The notes beneath the pieces were generated by a model. It had not been told where the DNA came from and made no database searches. It saw only the letters and a list, made by a program, of their open reading frames with translations. DNA of 64,000 bases from Escherichia coli (GTDB taxonomy: Bacteria > Pseudomonadota > Gammaproteobacteria > Enterobacterales > Enterobacteriaceae): the NCBI RefSeq assembly GCF_041248615.1, contig NZ_CP158426.1. The stretch is one strand, 5' to 3'. The translations under genes were made by a program, and so were the position numbers. Position 1 is the stretch's first letter. Each line of letters begins with the position of its first letter. Shown piece by piece: positions 4,295 through 43,384 of the stretch.

Positions 4295-5185
4295 TTATTT
4301 CACCTGGCTACGGGCAAACAGGTCGTCGAGCTTCTCTTCGTACTGATAGTAATTGATGCTTTCGTACAGCTCGTTGCGGGTTTGCATGGTGTCGATGACG
4401 CTTTTCTGCGTGCCTTCCTGACGCAGGACGTTGTAGACATGTTCGGCGGCGCGGTTCATGGCGCGAAACGCTGAAAGCGGGTACAGCGCCATTGCAACAT
4501 GGGCACTGCGTAATTCATCGGTAGTAAACAGCGGTGTTGCGCCAAATTCGGTAATATTGGCGAGGATCGGCACCTGCACCGCATCGGCAAACTGGCGGTA
4601 CATGGCGAGTTCGGTAATCGCCTCCGGGAACAACATCTCGGCACCCGCTTCAACATAGGCCTGCGCACGCTCAATCGCCGCATCCAGCCCCTCTACCGCC
4701 AGCGCATCGGTGCGCGCCATGATCACAAAATCAGGATCGGTTTTCGCATCCACCGCCGCGCGGATCCGATCCACCATCTCCTCTTTCGAGACGATCGCTT
4801 TGTTCGGACGATGACCGCAGCGTTTCGCACCAACCTGATCTTCAATATGCAATCCTGCCGCACCGGCTTTAATCATCGATTTCACGGTGCGCGCCACGTT
4901 AAAAGCAGAAGAACCAAAACCGATATCCGCATCCACCAGCAGCGGCAGCGAACAAACGTCGGTGATACGGCGAATATCTGTCAGCACGTCATCAAGAGTA
5001 GAAATACCGAGATCGGGCAGCCCCAGCGACCCTGCCGCCACGCCACCGCCGGAGAGATAAATTGCCTGATATCCGGCACGCTGCGCCAACAGCGCATGGT
5101 TGGCGTTAATGGTGCCAACAATCTGCAATGGATTTTCTTTAGACAGTGCAGCGCGAAACGCTTTACCTGGAGAGTGTAGAGACAT
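4295..5185 (-). CDS. prpB: 2-methylisocitrate lyase
   Basis: 296-aa ORF, isocitrate lyase/PEP mutase family, first gene of prp operon. Confidence 0.92.
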
Positions 5186-5231
5186 AGCCCATCCTTTGTT
5201 ATCAACTTGTTATTTGCGTTGATAAAGACAA

Positions 5232-5247
5232 AGCAAGGGGTGTGCCA
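5232..5247 (-). promoter_or_regulatory. candidate sigma-54 (-24/-12) promoter for prpBCDE
   Basis: Minus strand reads TGGCAC-ACCCC-TTGCT (consensus TGGCAC-N5-TTGCW), about 47 bp upstream of prpB start; divergent prpR is a sigma-54 enhancer-binding protein. Confidence 0.6.
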
Positions 5248-5423
5248 CAATTGACTGAATAAAATTAAATGTTTAATTTCAATTTGTTATAAATAAAGTC
5301 ATGAAGTAATCCGCAAATATGCGTTTCAGTTAACGTTTCAGGCAATGTTTCACCGCGTTTCATTGCAACAATTATGAAACAAGACTAAACCCAATATTCG
5401 GTTTCTTAACTTTGCGGTGCGCT

Positions 5424-7010
5424 ATGGCACATCCACCACGGCTGAATGACGACAAACCGGTGATCTGGACGGTATCTGTAACGCGCCTGTTCGAGCTGTT
5501 TCGCGATATCAGCCTCGAGTTTGATCATCTGGCGAACATTACCCCTATCCAGCTTGGCTTTGAAAAAGCGGTGACCTACATCCGCAAAAAACTGGCAAAC
5601 GAACGCTGTGACGCCATCATCGCTGCTGGCTCTAACGGCGCGTACCTGAAAAGCCGCCTGTCAGTGCCAGTTATTTTGATTAAACCGAGCGGCTACGATG
5701 TGTTACAGGCACTGGCAAAAGCCGGAAAACTCACCTCTTCTATCGGCGTTGTCACTTATCAGGAAACCATTCCAGCGCTGGTGGCGTTTCAAAAAACCTT
5801 TAATTTGCGCCTCGACCAACGTAGCTACATTACCGAGGAAGACGCACGCGGGCAGATTAACGAGCTAAAAGCTAACGGCACCGAAGCGGTGGTCGGCGCG
5901 GGGCTGATTACCGATCTGGCAGAAGAAGCCGGAATGACCGGAATTTTTATCTATTCCGCCGCCACCGTGCGCCAGGCATTCAGCGATGCGCTGGATATGA
6001 CGCGCATGTCGTTACGCCATAACACTCACGATGCCACCCGCAACGCCCTGCGTACTCGTTACGTGCTGGGCGATATGCTCGGTCAATCACCACAGATGGA
6101 ACAGGTACGGCAGACTATTTTGCTGTATGCCCGCTCCAGTGCGGCGGTGTTGATTGAGGGGGAAACGGGGACGGGCAAAGAACTGGCAGCCCAGGCGATT
6201 CATCGGGAATATTTTGCCCGCCACGATGCGCGACAGTGCAAAAAATCGCATCCGTTTGTTGCCGTCAACTGCGGGGCGATTGCCGAATCGCTGCTGGAAG
6301 CAGAGCTGTTTGGCTATGAGGAAGGGGCGTTCACCGGCTCGCGACGTGGAGGTCGCGCCGGGCTGTTCGAAATTGCCCACGGCGGTACGCTGTTTCTGGA
6401 TGAGATTGGCGAAATGCCGCTGCCGTTGCAGACTCGGCTGCTGCGGGTGCTGGAAGAAAAAGAGGTCACCCGCGTCGGCGGGCATCAGCCTGTTCCGGTA
6501 GATGTGCGGGTCATTAGCGCCACTCACTGCAATCTGGAAGAAGATATGCAGCAAGGACGTTTTCGCCGTGATCTGTTTTATCGGCTGAGTATTTTGCGTC
6601 TGCAATTGCCACCACTGCGCGAGCGGGTGGCGGATATTCTGCCGCTGGCGGAAAGCTTTTTGAAAGTGTCTCTGGCGGCGCTCTCCGCCCCGTTTTCTGC
6701 CGCATTACGCCAGGGATTACAGGCAAGCGAAACCGTGCTGGTGCACTACGACTGGCCGGGCAATATTCGTGAACTGCGCAATATGATGGAGCGACTGGCG
6801 CTGTTTTTAAGTGTGGAACCGACGCCGGATTTAACGCCGCAATTTTTGCAGCTGCTACTGCCGGAACTAGCGCGCGAGTCAGCGAAAATTCCCTCCTCAT
6901 CCTTGCTGACACCACAACAGGCACTGGAGAAATTTAATGGCGATAAAACAGCAGCGGCGAATTATTTAGGTATCAGCCGGACGACGTTCTGGCGGCGGCT
7001 GAAAAGCTGA
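5424..7010 (+). CDS. prpR: sigma-54-dependent propionate catabolism activator
   Basis: ORF 5412-7010; likely start [10 protein letters not shown] at 5424 (528 aa); AAA+ sigma-54 interaction motifs ([13 protein letters not shown]), C-terminal HTH. Confidence 0.9.
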
Positions 7011-7110
7011 ACTGCCGAATGCAGCGCGAACGCTTTATCCGGCATAAATTTTAATAGATGATGATCACCGATAAACTTACGCATCGGGGATGTTTACATA
7101 GGTTTCAGAA

Positions 7111-7386
7111 TTACTTCTTCTTATAAATATTTGCCGTGCCGTGAATCTTATTGTCAGTTTGACCAGAGGTCAGCACCAACACATCAGCCCCTTTTTCATC
7201 GGCTTTTTTGATTAAATCTTCTTTTGCATCTGCAGTCGACATTTCATTACTGGTTGAAATATCACCTATTTTTTCATACTGCGATTCAACTTTTTCAAAT
7301 TCCGCTTTGGTCATCAATTCAGCGGCATAGACATTGGTAACGGCAAACGCTAACGCACCGACTAACATTTTAGAGATTATTTTCAT
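7111..7386 (-). CDS. yahO: small periplasmic protein, DUF1471 family
   Basis: 91-aa ORF with signal peptide [21 protein letters not shown]. Confidence 0.8.
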
Positions 7387-7532
7387 ATTACGGCTCCAGA
7401 GTTGTTATCACACTATCACCCACCGACATTATTGGGTTGATTAATAATTAGTTCAGTCAGGGCATAAACGCCAGTAACCGGAAATAAGACACTTTGTGAT
7501 CTCTCTCGCACCCGATTATTTTTGGTAGAAAT

Positions 7533-8204
7533 ATGATGCAGTTAGTTCACTTATTTATGGATGAAATCACTATGGATCCTTTGCATGCCGTTTACCTGAC
7601 CGTAGGACTGTTCGTGATTACTTTTTTTAATCCGGGAGCCAATCTCTTTGTGGTAGTACAAACCAGCCTGGCTTCCGGTCGACGCGCAGGAGTGCTGACC
7701 GGACTGGGCGTGGCGCTGGGCGATGCGTTTTATTCCGGGTTGGGTTTGTTTGGTTTGGCGACGTTAATTACGCAGTGCGAGGAGATTTTTTCGCTTATCA
7801 GAATCGTCGGCGGCGCTTATCTCTTATGGTTTGCGTGGTGCAGCATGCGCCGCCAGTCAACACCGCAAATGAGCACACTACAACAACCGATTAGCGCCCC
7901 CTGGTATGTCTTTTTTCGCCGCGGATTAATTACCGATCTCTCTAACCCGCAAACCGTTTTATTTTTTATCAGTATTTTCTCAGTAACATTAAATGCCGAA
8001 ACACCAACATGGGCACGTTTAATGGCCTGGGCGGGGATTGTGCTCGCATCAATTATCTGGCGAGTCTTTCTTAGTCAGGCGTTTTCTTTGCCCGCAGTGC
8101 GTCGTGCTTATGGGCGTATGCAACGCGTTGCCAGTCGGGTTATTGGTGCAATTATTGGTGTATTCGCGCTACGCCTGATTTACGAAGGGGTGACGCAGCG
8201 GTGA
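7533..8204 (+). CDS. yahN: LysE/RhtB-family amino-acid exporter
   Basis: 223-aa polytopic membrane ORF. Confidence 0.8.
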   Translation: MMQLVHLFMDEITMDPLHAVYLTVGLFVITFFNPGANLFVVVQTSLASGRRAGVLTGLGVALGDAFYSGLGLFGLATLITQCEEIFSLIRIVGGAYLLWFAWCSMRRQSTPQMSTLQQPISAPWYVFFRRGLITDLSNPQTVLFFISIFSVTLNAETPTWARLMAWAGIVLASIIWRVFLSQAFSLPAVRRAYGRMQRVASRVIGAIIGVFALRLIYEGVTQR

Positions 8205-8220
8205 GCAGATAATTTACTCT

Positions 8221-8466
8221 CTACGTAATCAACCTGATTTGCCGAATCCCGACCATCGGCGATGATAGCCCCCGTAATGCGTGGTCCTTATTTCCGATAA
8301 GTTTACTTGAGTCTTTAGCTTCCCATTTCAGCCCACTCTCCCCTGTGTGGGCTTTTTTCATTGCTCTGACCCGTCCTGAATAGCCAAACAATGGCAATGT
8401 TTCACTTTGCAGGGATGATAATAAGGGGATCTGATTCAGAAGAGTTATGAAAAGTTGGACCGCCAT
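8221..8466 (-). CDS. yahM: small hypothetical protein
   Basis: ORF 8221-8496; internal ATG at 8466 gives 81 aa; position between yahN and yahL; weak coding evidence. Confidence 0.4.
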   Translation of the reverse strand: MAVQLFITLLNQIPLLSSLQSETLPLFGYSGRVRAMKKAHTGESGLKWEAKDSSKLIGNKDHALRGLSSPMVGIRQIRLIT

Positions 8467-8878
8467 CGAGGCCTCGAACCCCGTACCATACAACAATCCT
8501 GGTTGTCGTCTGCTCTTCCTGATGAGCTAATGGCGGTTTTTGATATGAGCCTTACAGCATATTTTCTGTCAGGCTTGAGTGCGATGCGTAAGATACAGAA
8601 AAGACCCCACACAAACATGATGGAATTATGATTTTTTTCATATGAATGTCAACCCACACATTCACAAAACATCTGCATGAGATCATTTTTTATACACCGT
8701 ATAGCTGCGAAACCACTGCTGATGCTTTTTTAAGCGAAGCGTCGCCGATCACAACAAAATATCGGCGAAAAAGGCGGTGGAATGCCATTTGGCATACGGA
8801 TATACAGATGAAATGATTACCTGCTTTGCGATTCACTCTCTGGTGGAATAACAACTCGCAGGTGGAACCCTTTCTGAA

Positions 8879-9694
8879 CTAAAGAGTGTAGCGGATTTTA
8901 ACGTGCTTATTTACAGGATAATATCTGTCACCTAATTCCTGGACTCTATTAGATATCCATTGATTTAATCGCGCATCATCTCTGTATGTTTTTACGTCCA
9001 GAACAGAGAGCAATAACATCACCAGTGATTCAGGAAAAACAGGGTAGATATTTTTTAAGTGTAATAATAATCCATGCGCAAGCGCCTGCTTAATGGGTGC
9101 GTCGGTCTCCGGAATAGACGACATTTCGCGAAGCCATTTTTCCACATGCATACACTCTTTCCCTTTAGGGAAAAGTCTCAGCAAAGGCATATGGTGTTCA
9201 AGAAGAATACATTTGCAATCTGTTCGCACTGAATCGATAAACTGCACTAATTTCTTAAGCCCGGTAAAGCGTCCAGCCTGCACGTTTGCTTTAATATCAA
9301 GAAACGCATCGTCCTGGTCATATACCCAAACTGTCCCTTTTTGATTTTCAAGTATGCGAAAAACAAACTTAACCGGGTGATCAGGGTAATCCATCCAGTC
9401 ATAAAATCCAGGGAAATCATTAAACTGCACATTTATAGTGAGTGCGTTATCGTCTGACCACTCACAGTCTCGTACAGCAGCCATGAGATGAATGAGTTTG
9501 TCGTCATCGACTAAATCATCACGACAATCATAAGGATAATCATAATATTGTTTAATCAAAACCTTGAATATATCGACACAGGAGACCAGGGAGCTTTTGA
9601 TATCCTCTGGTAACTGATTGTTTTTTACTGTATTAAGTATGCTTTGTTGCGTATATGGCATCAAATTATTGTGCGGAGCTTTTAATGATATCAT
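8879..9694 (-). CDS. yahL: hypothetical protein
   Basis: 271-aa ORF in conserved position. Confidence 0.7.
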   Translation of the reverse strand: MISLKAPHNNLMPYTQQSILNTVKNNQLPEDIKSSLVSCVDIFKVLIKQYYDYPYDCRDDLVDDDKLIHLMAAVRDCEWSDDNALTINVQFNDFPGFYDWMDYPDHPVKFVFRILENQKGTVWVYDQDDAFLDIKANVQAGRFTGLKKLVQFIDSVRTDCKCILLEHHMPLLRLFPKGKECMHVEKWLREMSSIPETDAPIKQALAHGLLLHLKNIYPVFPESLVMLLLSVLDVKTYRDDARLNQWISNRVQELGDRYYPVNKHVKIRYTL

Positions 9695-9861
9695 CGCGAT
9701 CTCTCTTAAATAAAAATAAACGTCGCAGATAATAAAGCCCTGATTAAACCAGGCACTATCAGAAATCGCTCATAACTAACGTGTGAAGTATTGTGTACTG
9801 GAGGGAGTTAATTTAACAATTTGAATTTACGTTATAGGTTTTACTGCTACTTTGATATTAT

Positions 9862-9899
9862 TTCGCTCTCCTTAACTAAAAAGTTAAGTGGAGAGCGAA
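9862..9899. terminator. strong hairpin immediately downstream of yahK stop (candidate terminator or RNA stabiliser)
   Basis: TTCGCTCTCCTTAACT-AAAA-AGTTAAGTGGAGAGCGAA: 16 bp stem with 2-nt bulge; no clear U-tract on either strand. Confidence 0.35.
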
Positions 9900-9936
9900 G
9901 TTAATATGTTAAACCACAGGGTATTTATTAATTTTT

Positions 9937-10986
9937 TCAGTCTGTTAGTGTGCGATTATCGATAACAAAACGATATTTCACATCACCACGCAGCATTCGC
10001 TCATAGGCTTCATTAATTTGATCGGCCCGAATCATCTCTATATCAGCCACGATGCCATGTTCGGCGCAAAAATCGAGCATCTCCTGAGTTTCTGGAATGC
10101 CGCCAATCATAGAACCGGCTATCGCACGGCGTTTCATGATCAGGTTGAAAACTTCCGGCGATTTATGCGGTGTCGCAGGCGCACCAACCAGCGTCATGGT
10201 GCCATCACGCTTCAGCAAGGTGGTAAAATCGTCGAGATTATGTGGCGCAGCTACTGTATTCAAAATGAAATCGAAACTCTTGAGATGAGCCGCCATCTCA
10301 TCGGCATTGCGTGAGTTAACAACTTCATCGGCCCCCAGGGCTTTTGCCGCTTCGCGTTTTGACTCAGAAGTGGTAAATGCCACCACATGCGCCCCCATCG
10401 CGTGGGCCAGCTTAATCCCCATATGTCCCAGACCGCCGATGCCGACCACGCCCACTTTTTTACCCGGCCCGGCCTGCCAGTGACGTAGCGGCGAATACGT
10501 GGTGATCCCTGCACACAACAAAGGAGCCACCGCCGCCAGCTGCTCTTGCGGGTGACGAATACGCAGAACATATCGCTCATGAACGACGATCTGTTGTGAG
10601 TAGCCGCCCAGAGTATGGCCCGGTTCGTCCGGCGTCGGCGAGTTATAGGTGCCGGTCATGTGATCACAGTAGTTTTCCAGCCCGTCTTCACACTCTTCGC
10701 AATGTTTACAACTGTCGACAATGCAGCCGACACCGACCAGATCGCCCGGCGCATGTTTTTCTACCTGATCACCAACGGCTACCACACGCCCCACAATTTC
10801 ATGACCCGGCACGCAGGGGTAAACCGTCCCCGCCCACTCGGAACGGACCTGGTGGAGATCGGAATGGCAAACGCCACAGTAAGCGATTTCAATTTTGACA
10901 TCATGCGGTCCCGGTTCACGCCGGGTGATATCCATCGATTCAAGTGGTTGTTTAGCGGAATATGCACCAACAGCTTTGATCTTCAT
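9937..10986 (-). CDS. yahK: Zn-dependent NADPH aldehyde reductase / alcohol dehydrogenase (MDR family)
   Basis: 349-aa ORF; zinc ADH motif GHEIVGRV; Rossmann GVVGIGGLGH. Confidence 0.88.
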   Translation of the reverse strand: MKIKAVGAYSAKQPLESMDITRREPGPHDVKIEIAYCGVCHSDLHQVRSEWAGTVYPCVPGHEIVGRVVAVGDQVEKHAPGDLVGVGCIVDSCKHCEECEDGLENYCDHMTGTYNSPTPDEPGHTLGGYSQQIVVHERYVLRIRHPQEQLAAVAPLLCAGITTYSPLRHWQAGPGKKVGVVGIGGLGHMGIKLAHAMGAHVVAFTTSESKREAAKALGADEVVNSRNADEMAAHLKSFDFILNTVAAPHNLDDFTTLLKRDGTMTLVGAPATPHKSPEVFNLIMKRRAIAGSMIGGIPETQEMLDFCAEHGIVADIEMIRADQINEAYERMLRGDVKYRFVIDNRTLTD

Positions 10987-11072
10987 TGTGTTTACTCCTG
11001 ATTAGCTATGTGTATTTGGCGATGCCTGATATGTCATCGCGGCAAAACGCGTCCATTGAATATAGCCAATAT

Positions 11073-12029
11073 TTAAACCACCCGATCCAGCCCCAACATG
11101 CCGCGAGCCTGAATGAAACAGAGCAGCAACGTTCCCCATAAGGCCATCGTCAGGTAGGGGCTTATACCGAGAATATTGAAGCCGCTTTCAATAATTTGCA
11201 GAAGAAACAGCGCCAGCACCATACCAATTATCCGCCCGCTGCCGCCGTCCGGATTAACCCCGCCGAGTACTGCCGCGAGGATTGACACCAGCAAGTACGA
11301 TTCGCCATAAGAGGCCTTAGCCGAGTTGAGTTTCGACATCATCAAAAATGCCGCTACCGCACAAAGCAAGGCGGAAATGACATACACCCAAATCAGCACC
11401 CGACGAGTGTTAATGCCGGAGTAAAGTGTTGCTCGTTCGTTAGAACCAATCAGATAAATGGATTTACCGAGCGGCGTTTTCTCCAGCAATATCCACAGCC
11501 CTAGCGACACTGCGGTAAACAACCACATCGGTAGCGGAATACCGAACCACTGTGCATGATTCAACCACAGCACCCATGAGGGATAATTGGCAATGGCGCT
11601 ACCGCCTGTCACCAGAATATTTACCCCTTTGAGCAACGTCATCATCCCAAGCGTTGCAAGAATTGGCGACACTCGAATACCAGCAATCAATACGCCGTTA
11701 CATAAACCGATTATCACCGCCGCGCCAGCGCCCGCCAGCAGCGTAGCGACAACCGTAGCAATACCCGGTGGATACTGAGTCGCCACCCACGCCATCACCA
11801 GTGAACAGGCGTTAGCAGTGGCTATAATTGACAAGTTAATGCCACCGCAAAGCATGGTCACCGCCATAGCCAACGCCAGAATGCCCAGCACGGGCATTTG
11901 CGAAGCGACGGACTGGAAATTACTTATCGACCAGAAAATCTCCGGCATAGTAATGCTGAAGGCTGCAACAGTTAGCACCAGCAGGCCGATCAAGTAAAAC
12001 TCAACGTTGTTACGCCACGATTTTTTCAT
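11073..12029 (-). CDS. ABC transporter permease (CUT2 sugar-type)
   Basis: ORF 11073-12059; internal start MKKSWRNN at 12029 forms ATGA overlap with stop of upstream permease; polytopic membrane protein. Confidence 0.8.
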   Translation of the reverse strand: MKKSWRNNVEFYLIGLLVLTVAAFSITMPEIFWSISNFQSVASQMPVLGILALAMAVTMLCGGINLSIIATANACSLVMAWVATQYPPGIATVVATLLAGAGAAVIIGLCNGVLIAGIRVSPILATLGMMTLLKGVNILVTGGSAIANYPSWVLWLNHAQWFGIPLPMWLFTAVSLGLWILLEKTPLGKSIYLIGSNERATLYSGINTRRVLIWVYVISALLCAVAAFLMMSKLNSAKASYGESYLLVSILAAVLGGVNPDGGSGRIIGMVLALFLLQIIESGFNILGISPYLTMALWGTLLLCFIQARGMLGLDRVV

Positions 12030-31404: not shown

Positions 31405-33075
31405 TTGCAATTTGACTACATCATTATTGGTGCCGGCTCAGCCGGCAACGTTCTCGCTACCCGTCTGACTGAAGATCCGAATACCTCCGTGCTGCTGCTT
31501 GAAGCGGGCGGCCCGGACTATCGCTTTGACTTCCGCACCCAGATGCCCGCAGCGCTGGCGTTCCCGCTACAGGGTAAACGCTACAACTGGGCCTATGAAA
31601 CGGAACCTGAACCGTTTATGAATAACCGCCGCATGGAGTGCGGACGCGGTAAAGGTCTGGGTGGATCGTCGCTGATCAACGGCATGTGTTACATCCGTGG
31701 CAATGCGCTGGATCTCGATAACTGGGCGAAAGAACCCGGCCTGGAACACTGGAGCTACCTCGATTGCCTGCCCTACTATCGGAAGGCCGAGACGCGCGAT
31801 ATTGGTGAAAACGACTACCACGGCGGCGACGGCCCGGTGAGCGTCACCACCTCCAAACCCGGCGTCAATCCGCTGTTTGAGGCGATGATTGAAGCGGGCG
31901 TGCAGGCAGGCTACCCGCGCACGGACGATCTCAACGGCTATCAGCAGGAAGGTTTTGGCCCGATGGATCGCACCGTCACGCCGCAGGGTCGTCGCGCCAG
32001 TACCGCGCGCGGTTATCTCGATCAGGCCAAATCGCGCCCTAACCTGACCATTCGTACTCACGCCATGACCGATCATATCATTTTTGACGGCAAACGCGCG
32101 GTGGGCGTCGAGTGGCTGGAAGGCGACAGCACCATTCCAACCCGCGCGACAGCGAATAAAGAGGTGCTGTTATGTGCAGGTGCGATCGCCTCTCCGCAGA
32201 TCCTGCAACGTTCCGGCGTGGGTAGCGCTGAACTGCTGGCGGAGTTTGATATTCCGCTGGTGCATGATTTACCCGGCGTCGGCGAAAATCTTCAGGATCA
32301 CCTGGAGATGTACCTGCAATATGAGTGCAAAGAACCGGTTTCCCTCTACCCTGCCCTGCAGTGGTGGAATCAGCCGAAAATCGGTGCGGAGTGGCTGTTT
32401 GGCGGCACCGGCGTTGGTGCCAGCAACCACTTTGAAGCAGGCGGATTTATTCGCAGCCGTGAGGAATTTGCGTGGCCGAATATTCAGTACCATTTCCTGC
32501 CAGTGGCGATTAACTATAACGGCTCGAACGCAGTGAAAGAGCACGGCTTCCAGTGCCACGTCGGATCGATGCGCTCGCCAAGCCGTGGGCATGTGCGGAT
32601 TAAATCCCGCGACCCGCACCAGCATCCAGCGATTCTGTTTAACTACATGTCGCACGAGCAGGACTGGCAGGAGTTCCGCGACGCAATTCGCATCACCCGG
32701 GAGATCATGCATCAACCGGCGCTGGATCAGTATCGTGGCCGCGAAATCAGCCCCGGTGTCGAATGCCAGACGGATGAGCAGCTCGATGAGTTCGTGCGTA
32801 ACCACGCCGAAACCGCCTTCCACCCGTGCGGTACCTGCAAAATGGGTTATGACGAGATGGCAGTGGTTGACGCCGAAGGCCGCGTACACGGGCTGGAAGG
32901 CCTGCGCGTGGTAGATGCGTCAATTATGCCGCAGATTATCACCGGCAATTTGAACGCCACGACTATTATGATTGGCGAGAAAATGGCGGATATGATTCGC
33001 GGGAAGGATGCGTTGCCGAGGAGCACGGCGGGATATTATGTGGCAAATGGGATGCCGGTGAGAGCGAAAAAATGA
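31405..33075 (+). CDS. betA: choline dehydrogenase (GMC oxidoreductase)
   Basis: TTG start at 31405 with AGGAGG SD 6 nt upstream; N-terminal FAD fold [11 protein letters not shown]; 556 aa. Confidence 0.9.
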
Positions 33076-33287
33076 GTCGTGATGTGAACTGACTCAGGAA
33101 CCTATCAGATTGAGAGTTACCGTTCTACTATGAGGACCGAATCCTTATATAAAACACTGAGGTAACTCTCATGCTTCATATCCAGTATTCATGATGCTGG
33201 CTTTTTGCTGATATTTACCCTGAACATTCCTGATACAGACTATTAATACAATCTTATCTGCGACAGATTTTATTTTCTGGATATATT

Positions 33288-33838
33288 ATGAGTGAACAAA
33301 TCAAACAGGATATCGATCTGATTGAGATTTTATTTTATCTGAAGAAAAAGATTCGTGTTATCCTTTTTATTATAGCTATCTGTATGGCAATGGTGCTGTT
33401 GTTTCTGTATATCAATAAAGATAATATAAAAGTGACTTACAGTCTAAAAATAAACCAAACAACACCAGGCATACTTGTTAGCTGTGATAGCAATAATAAC
33501 TTTGCCTGTCAGACCACAATGACTGAAGATGTTATTCAGCGAATTACTACATTTTTTCACACCAGCCCAGATGTCAAGAACAGAGAAATAAAACTGGAAT
33601 GGTCAGGAGATAAGAGAGATTTACCAACTGCTGTACAAAAATGATATACCTGACCAGGAACTGGTCATTGTATCCGAACGGTGATGGCTGTGTCACTATA
33701 AGCTCACCAGAAATAAAAAATAAATATCCTGCTGCCATTTGCCTGGCTCTGGGATTTTTTCTAAGCATTGTGATTTCTGTAATGTTTTGCCTTGTCAAAA
33801 AAATGGTAGATGAATACCAACAAAACTCTGGGCAGTAA
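33288..33838 (+). pseudogene. membrane-protein gene region at the ykgH position, split across reading frames (possibly decayed)
   Basis: ORFs 33288-33644, 33641-33838 and 33810-34007 in frames 0/2/0, each with hydrophobic stretches; junction ATGA at 33641. Confidence 0.3.
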
Positions 33839-34080
33839 TAAACAGCATTCTGATAGAGAGTGCCTGTATATAGCTGAAGTGACAATGACTGGGAAGGGAA
33901 CCCGTTTTCAGGAATGGATGCCTGTCTTTTTCACTGTAAATATCCTGGCATTACTAATGCCAGGATATTTAAAGAAGAGGAGCATAACCATGACAGAACG
34001 GGGTTAAGTCAGGTTGTCCTTAACGCTATTCACAACCTCGTATGCCGACTTCAGGTTTATGTCCAGACTTCATATCTCTC

Positions 34081-34776
34081 TCAGCAATCCTCAATAATCA
34101 GATACACCGCTTTCACCGGACCATGAACCCCAACGACTTTGATAAGCTCAATATCCGCCGTTGAACTAGGGCCGCTAATGATGTTAATGCAGGACGGCAT
34201 TCGTTCACCGGCCTGCGCTTTCTGATGCAATTTTTCTGCGAGTTGCGCTACACGCGGCAGGATTGTGCTTTTACGCAGGATAAAAAGAGAAGATTCCGGG
34301 AGCAGGCTCAATGAACGCCCGCGCCCGGCGGCGGAAAAAAGAACCACTCCTCCCGATTCGGTTAAACCATATTCAGCATACACTACGCCAACTTTAGCCT
34401 GCTCTGCTTGTGATATGTTCTCAATACCTTTCGCCGGATCCCAAACAACGGCATTGCATTCCTGCTGCAAACGTTCGCTAATCCCCAATTCCTCCAGCCT
34501 CGTGTCATCGCTAATCACGACCGACTGATCTCCCAGCTCTTTACACAGTCGTATTGCAGCTTCTGCCGCCTTCGCCTCGCTGGTCAGTTCACAGCGCGTC
34601 AACATAACATCGCTGGCAAACTGGATAAACGCGTCACAGCGCTGCTGTTGGTTAAGTGCGGTAAGCCGCTCGTTAGCATAGTTGTTAAGCGGCGCATCTT
34701 CTGCTTGCGGTTCAAGTCGCAGCGGGCGACCCAGTGCCTGAGCAACGTTATTCAAAAATTCGCTCCGATTATCCAT
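34081..34776 (-). CDS. ykgG: LutC-like lactate-utilisation protein
   Basis: ORF 34081-34923; start MDNRSEF at 34776 gives 231 aa and an 8-nt overlap with ykgF. Confidence 0.85.
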   Translation of the reverse strand: MDNRSEFLNNVAQALGRPLRLEPQAEDAPLNNYANERLTALNQQQRCDAFIQFASDVMLTRCELTSEAKAAEAAIRLCKELGDQSVVISDDTRLEELGISERLQQECNAVVWDPAKGIENISQAEQAKVGVVYAEYGLTESGGVVLFSAAGRGRSLSLLPESSLFILRKSTILPRVAQLAEKLHQKAQAGERMPSCINIISGPSSTADIELIKVVGVHGPVKAVYLIIEDC

Positions 34777-42478: not shown

Positions 42479-43384
42479 CTATATTTCCAGACACCTGTTA
42501 TCACTTAACCCATTACTGGCCTGCTGCCGCAGATATTCCCGTGGCGAGCGATAACCCAGTGCACTATGCGGATGCCATTCGTTATAATGCTCGAACGCCT
42601 CTGCAAGGTTCTTTGCTGCCGTTAACCCGTCTGGTTTAGGCATGATACTGATGTAGTCACGCTTTATCGTTTTCACGAAGCTCTCTGCTATGCCGTTACT
42701 CTCCGGACTCCGCACCGCCGTGTTCTTCGGTTCAAGCCCCAATATCCGGGCAAACTGCCGTGTTTCATTAGCCCGGTAGCATGAACCATTATCCGTCAGC
42801 CACTCTACTGGAGACGCCGGAAGCTCGTTGCCGAAGCGGCGTTCCACCGCTCCCAGCATGACGTCCTGTACTGTTTCACTGTCGAAGCCGCCCGTAGTGA
42901 CTGCCCAGTGCAGTGCCTCACGGTCACAGCAGTCCAGCGCGAACGTGACTCGCAGTTTTTCTCCGTTATCACAGCGGAACTCGAACCCGTCAGAGCACCA
43001 TCGTTGATTGCTTTCTTTCACGGCCACTTTGCCAGTATGTGCCCGTTTCGATGGCGGTACAGCGGTTTTTCGCTCAAGCAACAGCGCATTCTGGCGCATG
43101 ATCCGGTAAACACGTTTGGCATTGATCGCAGGCGTACCATCAAGTTCGGCCTGTCTGCGAAGCAGCGCCCATACCCGACGATAACCATACGTGGGCAGCT
43201 CTCCGATAACATGGTGTATACGGAGAAGCACATCCGTATCATCTGAGTGACGGCTGCGGCGACCATCTTTCCAGTCATCGGTTCGTCTGAGAATTACGTG
43301 CAACTGCGCACGCGACACCCGGAGACAACGGCTGACTAAGCTTACTCCCCATCCCCGGGCAATAAGGGCGCGTGCGCTATCCAC
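42479..43384 (-). CDS. insD: IS2 transposase OrfB (InsD)
   Basis: 301 aa, recognised IS2 InsD sequence ([30 protein letters not shown]...). Confidence 0.9.

Follow-up and report, generated by a model that had tools for sequence, protein, structure and literature searches.

Two deletion scars and a putative IS481-family leader remnant between betA and ykgG in Escherichia coli

The betA-ykgG interval holds two deletion scars

The DNA between betA and ykgG in the Escherichia coli sequence analysed here (a stretch of 64,000 nucleotides, called the window below) has two deletion scars that are independent of each other, and it holds no novel genes. One scar lies inside ykgH and the other lies in the spacer between betA and ykgH. 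As a whole, the region is very likely to consist of a deletion allele of ykgH, a remnant of an IS481-family insertion sequence, a site from which the PAI-X island was lost, and a non-coding open frame, ORF3. It is a case of ordinary genome decay of known kinds, together with some detail that has not been annotated.

The gene order is betA (+), ykgH (+), the convergent ykgG (-), and ykgF. The stop codon TGA of betA (33073-33075, + strand) overlaps with the first aligned bases of the IS remnant. The right-hand boundary of the region is an intact ykgG gene of the lutC family (34081-34776, - strand), whose PGAP annotation was mapped from E. coli isolate 362 (NZ_OW967178.1). The segment from 33000 to 34200 is 100% identical to that of isolate 362 and about 95-97% identical to those of approximately 5,000 other complete genomes. 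The G+C content is 55-60% in betA, drops to 30-40% over 33100-34000, and rises again in ykgG, which is consistent with ykgH being part of the same foreign segment as the PAI-X island.

ykgH is split by a 118-bp deletion

The initial annotation had noticed three hydrophobic ORFs in frames 0, 2, and 0, with an ATGA junction at 33641, and had proposed that they are either a ykgH-like gene with frameshifts or several small proteins. All three ORFs and the junction are indeed present. Alignment to intact ykgH alleles, which had been named as the way to decide, proved to be the right test. When the window was aligned with the alleles of strain HET6 and a K-12-like strain, a single gap of 118 bp was found and the rest was collinear. 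The ykgH pseudogene (33288-33838, + strand) is 551 bp in length, compared with 669 bp for the intact alleles, which encode 222 amino acids, and its 222-codon frame is interrupted. The deletion junction lies at 33633/33634 (+ strand). YkgH residues 116-155 are lost with the deletion, and the frame is shifted, as 118 equals 3 × 39 + 1.

The two halves of the gene can be followed on both sides of the junction. ORF1 (33288-33644, + strand; 118 aa, frame 0) encodes YkgH residues 1-115, followed by an out-of-frame VQK and a stop codon, and contains the N-terminal motif, the first transmembrane segment (TM1), and part of the periplasmic domain of YkgH. ORF2 (33641-33838, + strand; 65 aa, frame 2) encodes YkgH residues M158-Q222 in the native frame, TM2 included; its start is the native Met158 and its end is the native TAA codon of ykgH (33836-33838). 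Hence, the disruption of ykgH suspected in the initial annotation was borne out for ORF1 and ORF2 and not for ORF3, and its cause is a single internal deletion rather than frameshifts.

Is the split merely a sequencing or assembly error, such as a homopolymer miscall, in a gene that is really intact? The initial annotation had raised this possibility, and the region is AT-rich (30-40% GC). However, the lesion is a clean 118-bp gap and not an indel of one or two nucleotides, and the junction sequence (...ACTGCTG/TACAAAA...) has neither a homopolymer nor microhomology at the ends. A query spanning the junction was matched in one piece, among the matches listed, by OW967178, LT599825, CP141061 (KE55), and OZ547043 (AF40), and was matched in two pieces, as expected for intact ykgH, in approximately 5,050 genomes. 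Counted from the best-scoring matches of this query, there are at least four carriers of the deletion. The exact junction string is present in all four carriers and absent from the intact strains. The carriers originate from Spain, the USA, and the UK, plus an NRZ isolate, and are independently sequenced complete genomes that have SNPs elsewhere; over 2.6 kb, they show 0, 6, and 43 flanking differences from the window. All of the 43 differences in AF40 lie downstream of 33727, a pattern which suggests a recombination breakpoint. Since independent assemblies share the exact junction, the ykgH lesion is real, and it is exceedingly improbable that an error produced it.

PGAP labels the locus in all four carriers as a 551-bp pseudogene, 'hypothetical protein, frameshifted'. 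The split ykgH is thus a real, inherited, rare, and lineage-specific null allele that has already been flagged in RefSeq, and not an error. In a comparison of 12 strains, a coding signature is seen in the ykgH frame, where 23 synonymous and 20 non-synonymous changes were counted; the two off-frames gave 7:36 and 6:37. Other lesions of ykgH were also encountered. Strain SX48 has an independent lesion with a larger deletion, and PK8277 has another independent lesion, with an IS5 family transposase annotated beside ykgH.

Intact YkgH resembles a small polysaccharide co-polymerase

Word-indexed searches found YkgH in Escherichia only. An exhaustive HMMER search found full-length homologues of about 220 aa with 20-30% identity. 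The family alignment has an N-terminal EIDLxEL motif with TM1, a Cys pair, a C-terminal TM, and a nearly invariant Trp, which is W129 in YkgH and is the only such residue of the family. Against the Pfam Wzz model (PF02706), intact YkgH scores 20 bits, below the threshold of 25.5, and against GNVR (PF13807), it has an E-value of 0.56. Among 14 family members, four reach an E-value of 6e-10 for GNVR, and five have weak, sub-threshold matches to Wzz.

A sequence search of the PDB with YkgH gave no match, and therefore fold comparison was used. An AlphaFold2 model of intact YkgH, built from the family alignment, has a pLDDT of 85.9 and a pTM of 0.67. The modelled protein is bitopic with two TM segments and has a periplasmic alpha/beta base and a long helix. 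The best PDB matches found by Foldseek were all polysaccharide co-polymerases (PCPs), namely WzzB (6rbg, E 1.2e-4), Wzc, WzzE, and KpsE, with a probability of 1.0, E-values of 1e-4 to 1e-2, and TMq of 0.47-0.53. Provisionally, the model places intact YkgH in a miniature PCP-like fold. The assignment is made by fold and not by sequence because the sequence scores are below the Pfam threshold and the TM-scores are moderate.

Distant YkgH homologues have no consistent genomic context; one has an autotransporter neighbour, one is in a Wzy_C/fimbrial neighbourhood, and the others are in unrelated contexts. The first of these lies downstream of a large autotransporter gene, an arrangement reminiscent of the hyxB-ykgH order.

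Neither a two-piece YkgH nor ORF3 is a likely product

The 118-bp deletion takes most of the long periplasmic helix (residues 109-143), W129, and a conserved TExY motif, and a functional ykgH product is therefore very unlikely. Might ORF1 and ORF2 nevertheless make a functional two-piece YkgH by translational coupling, or might the three ORFs be independent small membrane proteins? The stop and start codons do overlap at 33641-33644, where the ATG of ORF2 lies over the TGA of ORF1 as ATGA, one TM helix is kept in each of ORF1 and ORF2, and all 11 strains examined keep ORF3 open. However, 40 residues are gone, among them the nearly invariant Trp, no Shine-Dalgarno sequence is present upstream of ORF2, and the allele is rare (at least four carriers among about 5,050 genomes). 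The initial annotation had considered that intact orthologues might match one of the short ORFs; the intact orthologues are instead single 222-aa proteins. As for small proteins, ORF3 lacks a coding signature and matches no family. Both forms of this alternative are highly improbable, and the deletion allele without a functional product is the preferred reading. The ATGA overlap is a fortuitous by-product of the shifted frame running into AAAATGA. Programmed ribosomal frameshifting does not explain the arrangement either, as the orthologues are encoded in a single frame and the 40 residues are physically absent.

[quoted passage not shown] It starts 29 nt before the stop codon of ykgH and then runs into the spacer. 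It lies outside ykgH because intact ykgH stops at TAA 33836-33838, as ORF2 does. Over the 12 strains, the ORF3 frame has 5 synonymous and 16 non-synonymous changes, which is no better than the other frames. It has no match in Pfam or NCBIfam, and a PGAP annotation of it was never seen in the genomes examined. ORF3 was considered as a gene and rejected on family match, coding signature, and annotation; it is best read as a non-coding open frame, and the idea of several small proteins found no support.

The hydrophobic stretch of ORF3 is encoded by a near-perfect palindrome (33934-33953/33955-33974) with 20-nt arms that are 95% complementary (z = -6.6). It is a stronger inverted repeat than the one on the betA side and went unmentioned in the initial annotation. 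The palindrome is kept in the 11 strains examined, and the variants among these strains are not compensatory. It is probably a bidirectional terminator or a 3′-end hairpin between the convergent ykgH and ykgG genes. The 3′ UTR of K-12 ykgH has been reported as an sRNA candidate from RIL-seq, where RNA-seq reads accumulate and northern blots were negative (PMC8175672).

The inverted repeat downstream of betA matches an IS481-family leader

A perfect 10-bp inverted repeat with a 39-nt spacer had been reported just downstream of betA. The repeat, its spacer, and its location hold, and its arms are really 11 nt in length (33111-33121 and 33161-33171, + strand; 39 nt apart). No origin had been offered for it in the initial annotation. 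By sequence homology, it can be identified as the hairpin that is conserved in the 5′ leader of an IS481-family insertion sequence, of which a decayed fragment and not a complete element is left. The window has a single occurrence of the inverted-repeat pattern, and none was seen in 100 shuffles. RNA folding of the repeat (33111-33171), a check which had been suggested along with the repeat, gave -28 kcal/mol with z = -5.06. The right arm extends from position -10 to -1 and takes in the A of a vestigial ATG, and a Shine-Dalgarno sequence, GAGG, at 33159-33162 overlaps with the start of the right arm.

I searched one genome per species for the pattern GAGAGTTACC-N25-55-GGTAACTCTC. At least 120 loci were found in diverse bacteria, including Vibrio, Shewanella, Pseudoalteromonas, Photorhabdus, Pantoea, Pluralibacter, E. 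albertii, Nitrosomonas, and others, and many of these loci are at contig ends or on contigs of about 1.2 kb. Of the 120 loci that were read, 94 have the hairpin directly before the ATG-(L/I/F)-H-T... start of an ORF for a 346-aa transposase. This transposase matches the NCBIfam IS481 model NF033577 at 288.8 bits (cut-off 224) and has the Pfam HTH_29 and rve domains. The full IS copies, of which 28 were collected, are 1195-1210 bp in length and have the ends TGTATTAG...CTAATACA and target duplications of 6-7 bp, as read from the flanks. Full copies are present in 77 E. coli genomes and on many plasmids, annotated as 'IS481 family transposase', and IS fragments are present in 5,356 of 5,426 genomes.

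The left-end remnant in the window (33073-33180, + strand) aligns to IS positions ~5-114 of the ~1.2-kb element. Within it are the terminal inverted-repeat region and the leader hairpin, as well as the opening 10 nt of the transposase ORF. This vestigial transposase start (33171-33180, + strand), ATGCTTCATA, reads M-L-H-... and is identical at 10 of 10 positions to enterobacterial full copies. A profile of the 28 full IS copies found the remnant by nhmmer with an E-value of 5.8e-13, and most of this score is carried by the arms (20 bases) that had served as the search pattern. Once these arms were masked, no match was returned by nhmmer, and therefore the segments outside the arms were examined by an anchored permutation test. 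Against the Pluralibacter copy, the observed similarity was reached in 0 of 20000 permutations for the upstream 43 bases, in 0 of 20000 for the 39-nt spacer, and in 1 of 20000 for the downstream 10 bases. The IS homology of the remnant rests on this test, on the 10/10 match after the arm, and on a longer remnant in strain HS.

Thus, 33073-33180 has homology to the left terminal region and leader of IS481 elements, with the arms themselves having been the search pattern. The remnant has no transposase gene (only 10 nt of the ORF), no right inverted repeat, and no flanking direct repeats. When the whole window was searched with the full-IS profile, the right end (IS positions ~1150-1202) was not found. 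A resemblance of the type '...TTAATACA' near 33246-33253 had been considered as the right end and was dropped, as the full-IS profile found nothing.

It was also asked whether the inverted repeat could be native to E. coli, as a betIBA terminator, a regulatory RNA, or an attachment site for PAI-X. The repeat follows the betA stop codon directly and folds stably as RNA, the island junction is 9 nt from its right arm, and no change is seen in its 11-bp stem among five E. coli haplotypes, which vary at 17 other remnant positions. On the other hand, the arms, their spacing, and the following ATGCTTCATA are those of the IS481-family leader in at least 120 loci of unrelated bacteria. The repeat is not an intrinsic terminator because there is no T-tract after the stem; the stem is followed by ATGCTTCATATCC, which has no T-run, the consensus scan made no call there, and a predicted intrinsic terminator is located downstream, at 33182-33210. 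Searched against Rfam at E<=10, the segment 32900-34300 gave only chance-level matches, far below the gathering scores. In strain HS, the IS homology extends into the island, which would make the junction a deletion end-point and not an integration site. A native origin is thus quite unlikely, and the repeat is best read as an IS481-family leader.

PAI-X was probably lost at 33180/33181

Published descriptions place PAI-X between ykgH and betA (PMC12928451). Strain HS has a 6.74-kb segment containing IS1, ipbA (= fimX), hyxR, hyxA, and hyxB, which is PAI-X, and this island is located exactly at 33180/33181 of the window. The IS homology in HS continues past 33180 to IS position 167 (E 1.6e-20) and is found again at 237-371 (E 9.4e-5). 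Since the island-bearing arrangement keeps a longer decayed IS, the arrangement of the window and K-12 is most simply derived from the island-bearing one by a single deletion with 1 nt of microhomology. The junction at 33180/33181 would then mark the removal of about 6.74 kb. Such a deletion of ~6.7 kb would have taken PAI-X (fimX/ipbA-hyxR-hyxA-hyxB) and what remained of the decayed IS, which would explain why the remnant ends at 33180. It would also have fused the IS leader to a terminator-like hairpin and to the upstream/promoter region of ykgH.

This terminator-like hairpin, CCAGTATTCATGATGCTGG then CTTTTTGCTG (33182-33210, + strand), was detected by the consensus scan and is also found, conserved, at the right-hand border of the HS island. 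It lies 3′ of hyxB in island strains, and it lies 3′ of betA and the IS remnant here. The contiguous scar is present, unannotated, in 3262 of 5426 complete genomes; the deletion is shared with K-12 and approximately 60% of E. coli genomes. The integration of PAI-X at an attachment site formed by the inverted repeat was considered separately and was rejected on account of the IS homology into the HS island.

Possible functions of the leader hairpin

The hairpin was compared over 48 different leader sequences, in which its inner helix shows 91% pairing. Changes on both sides are seen in four of the six pairs of this helix, and its covariation score was reached by none of 500 shuffles. RNAalifold on the 48 leaders gave the outer stem only, which is invariant by ascertainment, and the inner helix was tested with an explicit structure. 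Because of this ascertainment, three more distant relatives were fetched by protein similarity. A Burkholderia copy (74% aa identity) has GGGGTTACC...GGAGTAACCCC directly followed by GTG. Its outer stem has changed from GAGAG/CTCTC to GGGG/CCCC, in which two A-U pairs have become G-C pairs by changes on both sides. In the copies from Roseobacter (74%) and Piscirickettsia (60%), the arms are unrelated in sequence and still pair into a long-range stem whose end is 1-3 nt upstream of the start codon.

Fitting this pattern, the stem may limit the translation of the transposase. The 3′ arm, which extends from the Shine-Dalgarno sequence to position -1, would occlude the ribosome-binding site. Both arms are inside the element, and therefore transcripts entering from outside carry both of them; the limitation may apply especially to such read-in transcripts. 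When a full IS copy was scanned for consensus promoters, none was found on the + strand. Occlusion of the ribosome-binding site would be the most likely role of the IS leader hairpin. A literature search for an IS481 leader stem-loop returned nothing relevant and no experimental report for the family.

Has the remnant been reused in E. coli? The 11-bp stem is invariant in five of five haplotypes, and 17 other positions of the 108-nt remnant have diverged, including those of the apical helix. The chance of finding no variable site in the 22 stem bases is about 0.02, a rough figure that assumes independent sites, which they are not. It is conceivable but unlikely that the hairpin has been retained as a functional 3′-end stem-loop, serving as an exonuclease barrier or stabiliser, of the betIBA transcript. 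Such an exaptation as a 3′ stabiliser of the bet mRNA, if true, would leave the IS origin of the hairpin unchanged.

Comparison with known systems

The ykgH gene of K-12 (b0310) is annotated as 'protein YkgH', a predicted inner-membrane protein. The window shares with K-12 the synteny of betA, ykgH, and the convergent ykgG, about 96% nucleotide identity across both retained parts of ykgH, and the start and stop codons. Unlike K-12 ykgH, the allele of the window lacks 118 bp (residues 116-155) and is shifted in frame, and it is therefore a pseudogene.

Intact YkgH may be compared with the PCPs Wzz, WzzE, Wzc, and KpsE. The model shares with them the N-terminal motif with TM1, the alpha/beta base, the long helix, and the C-terminal TM. 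In contrast, YkgH has about 220 aa, whereas the PCPs have 325-720 aa, and YkgH has no polymerase or flippase partner genes nearby. The comparison gives this uncharacterised K-12 protein a provisional place in the PCP fold class.

PAI-X is found at the betA-ykgH site in UPEC, EHEC, and HS. The site in the window is the same, and 33180/33181 corresponds exactly to both borders of the HS island; in contrast to the PAI-X strains, the window has no island and only the scar is left. The scar implies that PAI-X was probably lost from, and not gained by, approximately 60% of the sequenced strains at this site.

IS481-family elements are about 1.2 kb in length, with a single 346-aa DDE transposase and TGT...ACA ends. 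The remnant aligns with their left end and leader, and its hairpin has the same length (59 nt) as in the enterobacterial copies, but the first four terminal bases are not conserved. The betA-ykgH spacer in most E. coli, K-12 included, is on this reading an unannotated IS481-family fossil fused to a deletion scar.

In IS10, IS50, and IS200, leader or terminal hairpins occlude the ribosome-binding site of the transposase gene. The IS481 stem is alike in that its 3′ arm lies over the region from the Shine-Dalgarno sequence to the start codon and its 5′ arm is inside the element. It differs in that it belongs to another IS family with no sequence similarity to these elements, and its occlusion is proposed from comparison of sequences. 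The start-abutting leader hairpin of this IS481 subgroup is a candidate for the translational control of transposition.

The betA-ykgH spacer as an island scar

The spacer between betA and ykgH, in the window strain as well as in K-12, is a deletion scar of PAI-X, the island carrying fimX/ipbA-hyxRAB, with its junction at 33180|33181. In strain HS (locus L006), the corresponding stretches are 4384-4656 and 4493-11233. Because the IS481 homology runs beyond the breakpoint in HS, the island-bearing state appears to be ancestral at this position. A terminator-like hairpin with a T-run (33182-33210) begins 2 nt after the deletion junction, and the same sequence is found after hyxB in the island-bearing strains. 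Among 5,426 complete E. coli genomes, 3,262 carry the scar, and it is left without annotation.

The left side of the scar is the IS481 remnant. In the alignment, the TGA that ends betA (33073-33075, within the region 33069-33079) falls on positions 5-7 of the left IS end. Insertion of the IS may thus have taken place within the 3′ end of betA or exactly at it, and the IS may be the source of the stop codon that betA now uses. In most E. coli genomes, the IS481-family element has matches at a median of two sites, and identity to the best of them in a genome is often 90-95%. These matches indicate that a second, better-preserved fragment of the element exists elsewhere in the E. coli chromosome. 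In the window, an integrase-core (rve-type) transposase-like coding region on the minus strand (42560-42832) has weak similarity to the IS481-family transposase (27% over 99 aa, E 6e-5). This region is presumably another IS, IS3-like.

Lesions and flanks of ykgH

The ykgH pseudogene of the window (33288-33838) has its intact counterpart at 1787-2455 of locus L002. The junction of the 118-bp ykgH deletion in isolate AF40 (NZ_OZ547043.1) is exactly as in the window. AF40 and the window differ at 43 positions, and all of them fall downstream of 33727 (window 33727-34624), which points to a possible recombination breakpoint shortly after the 3′ side of the ykgH deletion. Independent changes at ykgH were found in three further strains: SX48 has lost most of ykgH, PK8277 has an annotated IS5 family transposase adjoining ykgH, and CP53 matched the query at the betA end only.

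[quoted passage not shown] In K-12, RIL-seq had put forward the ykgH 3′ UTR as an sRNA candidate, but northern blots failed to confirm it (PMC8175672).

YkgH and its distant homologues

For the intact form of YkgH, an uncharacterised protein of K-12, a confident model (pLDDT 85.9) shows the polysaccharide co-polymerase fold in miniature, with WzzB, Wzc, WzzE, and KpsE as its best PDB matches. The Pfam GNVR domain occurs in some distant homologues of about 220 aa. Two distant homologues lie at L137 6001-6678 and L140 6001-6663. One of these two follows fimbrial genes and genes for two further proteins, one Wzy_C/PglL-like and one DsbA-like. The other lies 1.4 kb downstream of a gene for a 1608-aa autotransporter, and this arrangement of an autotransporter followed by a YkgH homologue echoes the hyxB-ykgH order.
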